Assembly: GCA_934167495.1 (NCBI GenBank)
Contig: CAKPKP010000006.1
Span: 10,789 to 74,788 of the forward strand
Reading direction: 5' to 3'
DNA from: an uncultured Clostridia bacterium
GTDB lineage: Bacteria > Bacillota > Clostridia > TANB77 > CAG-508
DNA: 64,000 nucleotides
Numbering within the stretch: the stretch's first letter is position 1; every line of letters begins with the position of its first letter. Positions 12,342 through 13,706 of this stretch are shown in pieces. A program made the position numbers and the translations under genes. A model generated the notes under the pieces. It was not told the origin of the DNA. It saw only the letters and a program-made list of their open reading frames with translations, and searched no databases.

Positions 12342-12370
12342 TTGCAAATATCAATAAAATGTGGTAAAAT
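12342..12370 (+). promoter_or_regulatory. Candidate sigma-A promoter with an extended -10
   Basis: TTGCAA at 12342-47, a 17-bp spacer, then TGg-TAAAAT at 12362-70. The ATG at 12342 in the ORF track is therefore probably not the start. Confidence 0.4.
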
Positions 12371-12404
12371 ATATATGTTATATTGTTCAAGAGAGGTGAT
12401 AAAA

Positions 12405-13706
12405 TTGGATTTTAGTGAAATTAAAAATAGTATTAATGAAGTTGAAAAAGCAAAGAACAAAAAAAGAGAAGAAATGTCTGAAATGTATGATGAATTGAAT
12501 AATAATCAGGAATTTTTGGATATATTAATGTTACAGATAGCAAAAGATATAGAAACAAAATATCCAGGAGTGCAGTTCAGAATAATATCAAGAATAAAAT
12601 CACCTGATAGTTTTTCTGCAAAAGTTGAAAATGATTTAATGGATGTAGGCGAGATTAGTAAAATAAATGATGTAATGATTTATGACATAGTTGCACTTAG
12701 TATAATAATAGAAAATGTTCCAGATGATATAAAAGCTAATGATCCAAAATTTGATAGTCATATTAAAGATTTAATCAATATGAGAAATGAAAGTAAAATA
12801 AATATAGATAAATATAAAGCAGAAATATCTGATTATAGAAAAAGATTAGTAGAAGATGAAAAACGATTAGAAGAGCATAGAGAAAAGCTTAAAGAAAATA
12901 AAGAAAAACAACAAGAACAAATATCTCCAGAATTCAAGACGTATTTAGAAGATATGCAGAAATATATTACTTCAAATATATATGATATTGAAGAAAGAAT
13001 GGAAAATATAAATAGAGATATTTTAGATAAAATGAAACCTGTTCAAAGAACAGAAGATAGATATGCTAAAGAAAACAATGACTGTAATAATGCTTTGGCA
13101 GATTATATAATAAAAAATTTGTGTCAATTTGAAAATGTTAAACAATTAAAATTATCTCAAATACCAGGAAGATTAAAAAATAAAGAAAATTATGATGGGT
13201 ATAAAGCAACACATAATTGTTACAGAACGACTGTACACAATGAAAAAGGTGAGAAATTAAATTTTATTTGTGAAATTCAAGGTAAATCAATAGATGCATT
13301 TTATATTGCAGATAGAGGAAAAGCTGCAATTTATCATATAAATCAAACTCAGGTTCCAGGAAAAATTGTGAAAGAGAAAAAGTTACCAGAAGATATTTTA
13401 AAAATATCAACAGATGCAGAGAAAGAAGCTTTTAGAAAATATATGGATAAAAAAGTGCCAAGATATAGAGTATATGTTTCATCACCATTATCTAAGGAAG
13501 AACTAAATGATATGAAGAGTAAAGGAAAAAAAGGCACTAATGGGCATATATATAAATTAAGTAGAAGAGAATCTTTTATGTTATATTACTATAATCAATT
13601 AGCAGGAAATGAAGAGATAAAAATTCAAGGACATCCAGAGGAGTTTAAAGCGATAGCAACAAAGGATATACTTCCAGCGGATGATGGAGAAGAATATGAG
13701 TTTTAG
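12405..13706 (+). CDS. RelA/SpoT-domain (small-alarmone-synthetase-like) nucleotidyltransferase with a large coiled-coil insertion
   Basis: Synthetase motifs are present: SRIKSPDSFSAKVEN (GRVK…S…K-like), DIVALSIII (DxAGxRI-like), and GYKATHNCY…EIQGKS…AAIYH (GYRSxH…EIQIRT…xxEH-like). About 170 aa of charged coiled coil sit between motifs 2 and 3. A TTG start at 12405 has a GAGAGG SD. Confidence 0.55.
   Translation: MDFSEIKNSINEVEKAKNKKREEMSEMYDELNNNQEFLDILMLQIAKDIETKYPGVQFRIISRIKSPDSFSAKVENDLMDVGEISKINDVMIYDIVALSIIIENVPDDIKANDPKFDSHIKDLINMRNESKINIDKYKAEISDYRKRLVEDEKRLEEHREKLKENKEKQQEQISPEFKTYLEDMQKYITSNIYDIEERMENINRDILDKMKPVQRTEDRYAKENNDCNNALADYIIKNLCQFENVKQLKLSQIPGRLKNKENYDGYKATHNCYRTTVHNEKGEKLNFICEIQGKSIDAFYIADRGKAAIYHINQTQVPGKIVKEKKLPEDILKISTDAEKEAFRKYMDKKVPRYRVYVSSPLSKEELNDMKSKGKKGTNGHIYKLSRRESFMLYYYNQLAGNEEIKIQGHPEEFKAIATKDILPADDGEEYEF

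Follow-up and report, generated by a model that had tools for sequence, protein, structure and literature searches.

A stretch of 64,000 nucleotides from an uncultured Clostridia bacterium (contig CAKPKP010000006.1, hereafter the window) carries at 12405..13706 on the forward strand a gene for a 433-residue protein, which very probably contains a synthetase domain of the RelA/SpoT homologue (RSH) superfamily split in two by an inserted coiled coil. Judged from its homology and the invariant residues of its active site, we estimate at roughly 55% the probability that this protein is an active, regulated, cytoplasmic 3'-pyrophosphokinase of the alarmone type, akin to the small alarmone synthetases (SAS), in which the coiled-coil hairpin and a C-terminal domain would serve as regulatory modules. 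A nucleotide-signalling enzyme with a novel regulatory insert was also among the options raised by a first-pass annotation of this DNA, and it is the one that we favour.

Homology and architecture of the split synthetase domain

The relationship to RSH enzymes becomes visible when the insert is taken out. The intact protein has no family match in Pfam, NCBIfam or the PDB, phmmer against the PDB sequences likewise returned nothing, and what Pfam and NCBIfam list at E ≤ 10 is coiled-coil noise only. Untrimmed searches with the intact protein or its close family gave matches to apolipoprotein, MutS2, HlyD and SNARE designs, and NCBIfam and PADLOC gave matches to MutS2, JetC and ZorA, all of which were rejected as noise of the same kind. 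After removal of the 128-aa insert in silico, the window protein matches the RelA_SpoT family PF04607 with an E-value of 2.1e-5 and 25.2 bits, just below the curated cut-off of 27 bits, over profile positions 1-104 of 113, and 25 of 28 coil-deleted relatives match the same family (best E 3.9e-11). A trimmed profile of the superfamily retrieved from the PDB (hmmsearch) RelP (6FGK, 2e-9; 6EWZ, 4e-7), Rel (7OIW, 4e-8; 8ACU, 2e-7), RelQ (2BE3, 3e-7), RelSeq (1VJ7, 1e-6) and FaRel2 (8PU3, 3e-5), and RSH synthetases account for 20 of the 26 PDB matches listed at E ≤ 10.

Profile-profile comparison (hhalign) of the trimmed superfamily with a Rel alignment gave a probability of 97.5% (E 6e-12) over 154 columns, that is, the whole synthetase (SYNTH) domain, while the close family alone reached 73.6% (E 3e-5) with all motifs colinear. 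The paired motifs are RIKSPDSFSAK/RIKHVYSIYRK, YDIVALS/YDLYAFR and PGRLK/PGRFK in the order of the chain, followed in the C-terminal half by GYKATH/MYQSLH, CEIQGKS/FEVQIRT and ADRGKAAIYH/AEYGIAAHWKY. Without trimming, the profile still picked out three long Rel proteins of the canonical kind from 5.8 billion sequences (E 1e-6 to 1e-3). In the distant relatives (244-650 aa), motif 2 has its classical form D-x-x-G-x-R/K, and several of these proteins show sub-threshold PF04607 matches in the correct register. Homology to the RSH synthetase domain is hence established at the level of sequence profiles, and standard annotation misses it because of the insertion. All five synthetase motifs, among them the three named in the first-pass annotation, are present and colinear, with profile homology to Rel, RelP, RelQ and FaRel2. 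The profile search that it had proposed gave a divided answer: the intact protein found nothing in Pfam, and the homology to PF04607 appeared only without the insert. Lack of a significant RelA/SpoT prediction had been named there as a reason to abandon the idea, and a plain Pfam scan of the intact protein alone would have led to just that outcome.

The AlphaFold2 model, built from a 27-sequence alignment, has a predicted local distance difference test score (pLDDT) of 90.4 and a predicted template modelling score (pTM) of 0.85. Its elements run alpha-alpha-beta1-alpha-beta2-[hairpin]-beta3-beta4-beta5-alpha, the same order as in the SAS topology described for FaRel2, RelP and RelQ (PMC11782079), and the second N-terminal helix aligns with the helix ahead of beta1 in Rel. 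In the model the hairpin takes the place of the short helix between beta2 and beta3. The parts of the gene, all on the + strand, are as follows.

12405..13706, +: best-supported coding sequence of the split RelA/SpoT-like pyrophosphokinase, 433 aa plus stop, TTG start
12390..12399, +: ribosome-binding site AGAGAGGTGA, 6 nt ahead of TTG 12405
12405..12560, +: N-terminal helices alpha1-alpha2 (residues 1-52), with invariant K17, K20, Y28, D39, Q44 and K47
12561..12740, +: N-terminal half of the synthetase core (residues 53-112), comprising beta1, the RxKSxxSxxxK helix and beta2 with YD94IVALS
12591..12623, +: donor triphosphate motif R63-I-K65-S-P-D-S69-F-S-A-K73, invariant in the 27 homologues and in 33 superfamily members
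12681..12701, +: Mg2+ motif Y-D94-I-V-A97-L-S99 (residues 93-99), counterpart of D-x-x-G-x-R, with D94 invariant
12741..13127, +: inserted antiparallel coiled-coil hairpin (residues 113-241), helices 114-169 and 175-241, tip at about 170-174
13128..13340, +: C-terminal half of the synthetase core (residues 242-312), comprising beta3 with GRLKNK, the G-loop, beta4 with DGY266KATH270, beta5 with E290-I-Q292-GKS and alpha5 with ADRGKAAIYH
13341..13703, +: linker (residues 313-336) and orphan alpha/beta domain (337-433), with invariant P352, R355, E389, Y395, N397, L399, G401 and N402

In residue numbering, GRLKNK spans 255-260, GYKATH 265-270 (from nt 13197) and EIQGKS 290-295 (from nt 13272). 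The modelled secondary structure places them thus:

residues 3-33 and 36-52: N-terminal pair of helices
residues 57-64: beta1, with R63, and K65 directly behind it (motif RIKSPDSFSAK from 63)
residues 67-79: helix with S69 and K73
residues 96-104: beta2, just after D94
residues 114-169 and 175-241: long helices of the inserted hairpin
residues 258-262: beta3, the strand of R256, K258 and K260
residues 266-278: beta4, the strand of G265, Y266 and H270
residues 284-295: beta5, with E290, Q292 and K294
residues 296-312: helices of the alpha5 region
residues 313-336: linker, of lower confidence
residues 337-433: orphan alpha/beta domain

The two hairpin helices are modelled with a pLDDT of 95-97. 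Searched against the PDB with Foldseek, the full model found helical hairpins and BAR domains only (HP0958, 3NA7; CT398, 4ILO; YscO, 4MH6), which confirms the shape of the insert; neither the full model nor a model of residues 242-433 recovered an RSH structure in these searches. The Mg2+ Asp and the acceptor Tyr are spaced 172 residues apart; in canonical Rel this distance is 44, and in the superfamily it ranges over 70-249. The net insertion is therefore about 128 aa. The first-pass annotation had thus recognised the coiled coil, here resolved into a two-helix antiparallel hairpin, and had put its length too high at about 170 aa. Across the sequences the length of the insert is evolutionarily plastic, and the coil is the least conserved region of the protein, with a mean pairwise identity of 37% where the core has 60-65%. 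Charged residues make up 43% of the coil and nearly balance (net -4).

The C-terminal extension had likewise been noticed before, as a tail of about 110 aa. It proved to be no tail: residues 313-433, about 120 aa, form a conserved and confidently modelled alpha/beta domain behind a linker. This domain is conserved over the whole superfamily, contains a conserved F391-x-x-Y394-Y395 motif in a helical context in the model, and is matched by nothing in Pfam, PHROGs or the PDB, whether by sequence or by fold. Residues 242-433 modelled alone (pLDDT 81) gave nothing at E ≤ 0.001 with Foldseek against the PDB, with no CapRel or ATfaRel2 among the best 50 matches, and the domain therefore stays an orphan.

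The open reading frame (ORF) itself extends from 12342 to 13706 (+, 454 codons). We take TTG 12405 as the start because a GAGGTGA ribosome-binding site, read from the sequence, stands 6 nt before it, because the homologues start 0-5 residues ahead of a conserved DF, and because the 5' end of the ORF, at 12342, overlaps promoter-like hexamers, TTG 12342 falling within an element TTGCAA-17-TAAAAT with a TG extension (12342-12370). The public call for the identical protein, P0001, starts at ATG 12375 (443 aa), the less well supported alternative. Two overlapping promoter-like sites, TTTACA-17-TAAAAT and TTGCAA-17-TAAAAT with its TG extension, lie at 12332..12370 on the + strand as candidates; the strong promoter ascribed to the gene on first reading is at most plausible, since such sites are no more numerous in the region (22) than in shuffled sequence (20.1 ± 4.3). 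An Rfam scan upstream of the gene found neither riboswitch nor leader, and lysS begins 87 nt 3' of it with no terminator-like site between. That the gene is more than a chance ORF follows from 27 full-length homologues of the same architecture with 40 invariant columns.

Active site and probable chemistry

The structure of FaRel2 with APCPP allows the active site to be read residue by residue: there, R64, K66, S70, K74 and R77 hold the triphosphate and D90 the Mg2+, G93, R95 and Q147 hold the adenine, E145 confers adenosine specificity and Y128 holds the acceptor base (PMC11782079). The counterparts in the window protein are R63, K65, S69, K73, N76, D94, A97, S99, Q292, E290 and Y266, and they are invariant in the 27 close homologues except that a few divergent members have other residues in place of A97 and S99. 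R63, K65, S69, K73, D94, G265, Y266, H270, E290, Q292 and K294 are invariant in all 27 sequences. The residues for chemistry and for triphosphate binding are under strong purifying selection, and an active enzyme is therefore favoured. The basic residues around the acceptor Tyr (R256, K258, K260, K294) are also conserved; a large basic patch at this place is kept in alarmone synthetases and reduced in the tRNA-targeting FaRel2 (PMC11782079), so that its conservation here would weakly favour a nucleotide acceptor. The donor would be a nucleoside triphosphate, probably ATP, whose beta,gamma-pyrophosphate the enzyme would pass on to the 3'-OH of its acceptor. Given these four basic residues, the acceptor is most likely a purine nucleotide, and the product an alarmone of the (p)ppGpp or (p)ppApp type. 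The hairpin, poorly conserved and of variable length, and the C-terminal domain would contribute to regulation, oligomerisation or partner docking rather than to the chemistry.

One observation weighs against this picture. The donor site departs from that of characterised RSH enzymes, with the adenine-stacking R95 of FaRel2 replaced by Ser99, G93 by Ala97 and R77 by Asn76, and the donor nucleotide, or activity as such, could therefore differ. In the wider superfamily the Gly of motif 2 is usually kept, and the position of FaRel2 R95 is occupied by R, K, C, E, S, N or T. Besides the changes of G to A97 and R to S99, RT is replaced by K294/S295 (EIQGKS in place of ExQxRT). As far as the alignments go, the base pocket of the donor site is remodelled. 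Alternatively, the fold might be degenerate or repurposed, either as a pseudo-enzyme scaffold acting through its coiled coil or as an enzyme with a different donor or chemistry. The substitutions at Asn76, Ala97 and Ser99 within the close family, the EIQGKS motif, the variability of the R95 position over the superfamily and a PF04607 score that stays under the cut-off even after trimming would all fit such a history. We nevertheless regard it as unlikely: the Mg2+ Asp, the catalytic Glu and Gln, the triphosphate motif and the acceptor Tyr and His are invariant among proteins of 34-58% identity, and a mere scaffold would not be expected to keep its catalytic residues.

Among characterised enzymes the window protein most resembles RelP and RelQ (SasA/SasB; 6FGK, 6EWZ, 2BE3), the best matches of the coil-trimmed profile (E 2e-9 to 3e-7), with which it shares the motif order RxKxxxSxxxK, Mg2+ Asp on beta2, GYxxxH and ExQ, the stand-alone synthetase without HD hydrolase domain, and the chromosomal monocistronic gene. 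It differs from them in length (433 aa against about 210-230 aa), in the 128-aa hairpin between beta2 and beta3, in its DxxAxS and ExQGKS motifs (DxxGxR and ExQxRT there) and in its C-terminus, where the helical bundle through which those enzymes form homotetramers is replaced by an unrelated alpha/beta domain without a match. The likeness to the long RSH enzymes Rel, RelA and SpoT (1VJ7, 7OIW, 8ACU) extends over the SYNTH domain in the 97.5% alignment, including the pairs PGRLK/PGRFK and ADRGKAAxYH/AEYGIAAHWKY; unlike them, it has no HD, TGS or ACT/RRM domain detectable with Pfam or NCBIfam, and its Asp-to-Tyr spacing is 172 rather than 44 residues. The view of the first-pass annotation that the architecture is not that of RelQ, RelP or Rel is borne out by both the model and the profile alignments, which show a RelA/SpoT domain interrupted by a coiled coil. 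Long antiparallel coiled coils that emerge from the middle of a nucleotide-binding catalytic domain and separate its halves are familiar from the ATPase heads of SMC and Rad50 and from the middle domain of ClpB. The parallel is one of architecture only, for fold and chemistry are unrelated, no sequence relationship to SMC/Rad50 or ClpB was found, and the hairpin tip of the window protein has no hinge or zinc hook.

Distribution, genomic context and neighbouring RNA genes

The 27 full-length homologues (425-458 aa, 34-58% identity) are all unnamed and devoid of informative Pfam domains. A search of 1.84 billion cluster representatives with the family profile turned up only 51 proteins at E ≤ 1e-3, and a scan of the GTDB representative genomes yielded two loci only, both in metagenome-assembled genomes (MAGs) labelled 'uncultured Clostridia bacterium', the samples being indicated as rabbit ('Lapin') and Hadza human gut. 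This is a very rare, previously unannotated SAS-like family of uncultured low-GC Clostridia. In the literature searched, we found no description of an alarmone synthetase with a coiled-coil insertion. Jimmy et al. 2020 (PMC7229694) defined 30 SAS subfamilies through searches with hidden Markov models (HMMs), and families that fail PF04607 could have escaped surveys of this kind.

The window is core chromosome, with genes for NusB, XseA, FTHFS, a SleB-like hydrolase, an MFS transporter, a HAD phosphatase, an Xaa-Pro peptidase, EF-P and an M23 peptidase, after which follow tRNA-Trp, the gene, LysRS, TsaD and LepA; no protein with the canonical GYxSxH and ExQxRT motifs is encoded in it. Within a clade of 41-50% identity the gene order is constant, with prmC and 6S RNA on the minus strand to one side and whiA, hemW, hrcA, grpE, dnaK and dnaJ following the gene on the other; the gap to whiA is 23 nt in three of these loci (L004, L015, L016) and about 80-100 nt in two (L001, L017). 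The closest relatives (56-57% identity) show the order M14 peptidase, gene, tmRNA, FemAB, Alr, and distant relatives adjoin FtsZ/Maf, DprA/FolD, Dxr or a sigma factor. The gene is always single, and no conserved small neighbour or antitoxin-like gene was seen in about ten contexts, in keeping with the earlier remark that it has no obvious partner. In certain gut Clostridia it behaves as an ordinary, vertically inherited chromosomal gene in housekeeping neighbourhoods. Small HD-domain proteins (PF01966; 198 and 182 aa) are encoded at L012 3695-4291 and L021 4415-4963, at most two genes from the homologues P0034 and P0024; they could be unrelated YqeK-type proteins or a hydrolase partner.

The first-pass annotation had seen in the neighbouring tRNA gene a landing site for accessory DNA. 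The tRNA-Trp gene is indeed a neighbour, although the gene does not lie downstream of it: the two are divergent, with the 5' end of the tRNA toward the gene. tRNA and tmRNA genes, found respectively in the window and in the closest relatives, are both classical integration targets, and a large serine recombinase is encoded two genes upstream of the homologue in L014, as would suit mobile cargo. Islands integrate at the 3' end of tRNA genes, whereas the gene is placed 5' of tRNA-Trp and, in relatives, 5' of tmRNA; the window contains no att-like repeat of the tRNA end, and the GC content of gene and flanks is uniform at 24-27%. The synteny of the whiA clade is stable as well. Comparison of L014 4893-6879 with L019 3041-4933 shows that the recombinase (Resolvase, Recombinase and Zn_ribbon_recom domains) is inserted in L014 only, where it cuts the M14 peptidase to 145 aa (305 aa in L019) and replaces a polysaccharide deacetylase that L019 retains. 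Since it is absent from the otherwise syntenic L019, it represents a separate insertion. Arrival of the gene as mobile cargo is accordingly very improbable.

In four of eight distinct contexts a stable RNA gene adjoins the family gene or is separated from it by one small ORF, and it is a different one each time:

window 12174..12249, -: tRNA-Trp (CCA anticodon), a neighbour and not part of the protein; divergent, 5' end toward the gene
L014 8400-8751 and L019 6401-6753: tmRNA
L001 7660-7845, L015 6633-6818, L016 2353-2538 and L017 6643-6828: 6S RNA
L004 5638-5822: 6S RNA, one gene away
L009 1-94: OLE RNA, separated from the gene by a single 46-aa ORF

Three of the four contexts show a divergent arrangement in which the 5' end of the RNA gene lies toward the family gene, and in all four it is the only RNA gene detected in its locus (7-64 kb). 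A rough post hoc estimate puts the chance probability of this adjacency at 5e-5 to 4e-4, on a flanking rate assumed to be 3-5% rather than computed from genomes. Shared promoter regions of stable RNAs or a function linked to RNA may lie behind the adjacency, or it may mean nothing. That the family is functionally coupled to stable structured RNAs is a speculation to which we give little credence; the hairpin arm could dock on RNA polymerase with 6S RNA or on the ribosome with tmRNA, or the enzyme could pyrophosphorylate RNA 3' ends. Alternatively, expression of the gene might be wired to stringently controlled stable-RNA promoters.

The recurrence of tRNA, tmRNA, 6S RNA and OLE RNA genes would also suit an RNA- or tRNA-directed 3'-pyrophosphokinase of the toxSAS type that is inhibited in cis, following the logic of CapRel, with the C-terminal domain or the hairpin plugging the donor site until a trigger arrives. 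FaRel2 is among the significant PDB matches (3e-5), and its N-terminal layout and donor-site numbering are nearly the same (R64/K66/S70/K74, against R63/K65/S69/K73 here); both proteins have ordered N-terminal helices, which in FaRel2 anchor the tRNA (PMC11782079). With CapRel(SJ46) the window protein shares the single polypeptide with an extra C-terminal domain, here a conserved one whose F391-x-x-Y394-Y395 loosely resembles a YXXY plug. toxSAS modules, however, form conserved operons of two or three genes, in which the gene for the antitoxin lies next to that for the toxin (Jimmy et al. 2020, PMC7229694), whereas the neighbours of this family differ between clades and are housekeeping or RNA genes. 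No antitoxin-like gene occurs in the roughly ten contexts, where housekeeping synteny is conserved. CapRel is found patchily in prophages and defence islands; here synteny is that of the core chromosome and composition is uniform, and PADLOC and PHROGs gave no match. CapRel(SJ46) ends in a pseudo-zinc-finger domain (pZFD) with a YXXY plug; among the 50 best PDB fold matches to the C-terminal half model there was no CapRel, ATfaRel2 or pZFD-like structure. Furthermore, the protein lacks the adenine-stacking Arg and has a coiled-coil insertion without counterpart in FaRel2 and CapRel, it retains the basic residues at the acceptor Tyr that are reduced in FaRel2, and its hairpin has a slightly acidic character (net -4), in contrast to arms that bind nucleic acids. 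None of the toxin-antitoxin, defence and tRNA-island readings is thus supported by small neighbours, by database matches and by synteny, and the toxSAS or CapRel-like module raised in the first-pass annotation appears to us improbable, compared with the alarmone-type enzyme that we prefer.

Further features of the window lie apart from the gene. LepA (EF-4) appears to be split into two overlapping ORFs in different frames (21849-22661 and 22579-23673), the first with the GTP_EFTU and D2 domains and the second with EFG_C and LepA_C, which points to a frameshift, whether through an assembly error or in a pseudogene. The overlapping ORFs at 8391-8789 and 8740-9171 (132 and 143 aa) may be a second split gene; the latter contains the motif GLGDVKLMGALG, typical of prepilin (A24) peptidases. 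A 396-aa ORF at 16206-17396, without Pfam match, has two N-terminal CxxC zinc ribbons, by eye a hydrophobic and possibly membrane-spanning stretch, and a C-terminal region rich in Tyr and Glu. An ORF of 140 aa at 10940-11362 has CxxC pairs with sub-threshold zinc-ribbon matches only, and an acidic tail.

Implications for alarmone synthetases

Growth, persistence and phage defence in bacteria are set by RSH enzymes, which are classified by means of profile searches. The window protein illustrates that a large insertion in the catalytic domain can hide an RSH-type enzyme from sequence searches of Pfam, NCBIfam and the PDB and from Foldseek, and surveys of alarmone synthetase content can for this reason miss members. 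The reach of the finding is bounded by the very small size of the family, its confinement to uncultured organisms and the already well-populated category of divergent SAS. An arm of coiled coil rising out of the active-site sheet would add a new regulatory design to the RSH superfamily, and the altered donor site, in which the adenine-stacking Arg is missing, might mean that the nucleotide chemistry differs too. Should either the coupling to stable RNAs or the wiring to their promoters be real, it would amount to a circuit of a new kind, for alarmones or for RNA modification, in organisms that perhaps lack a conventional one. If the host Clostridia have no Rel, the enzyme of this family could be their only alarmone synthetase.

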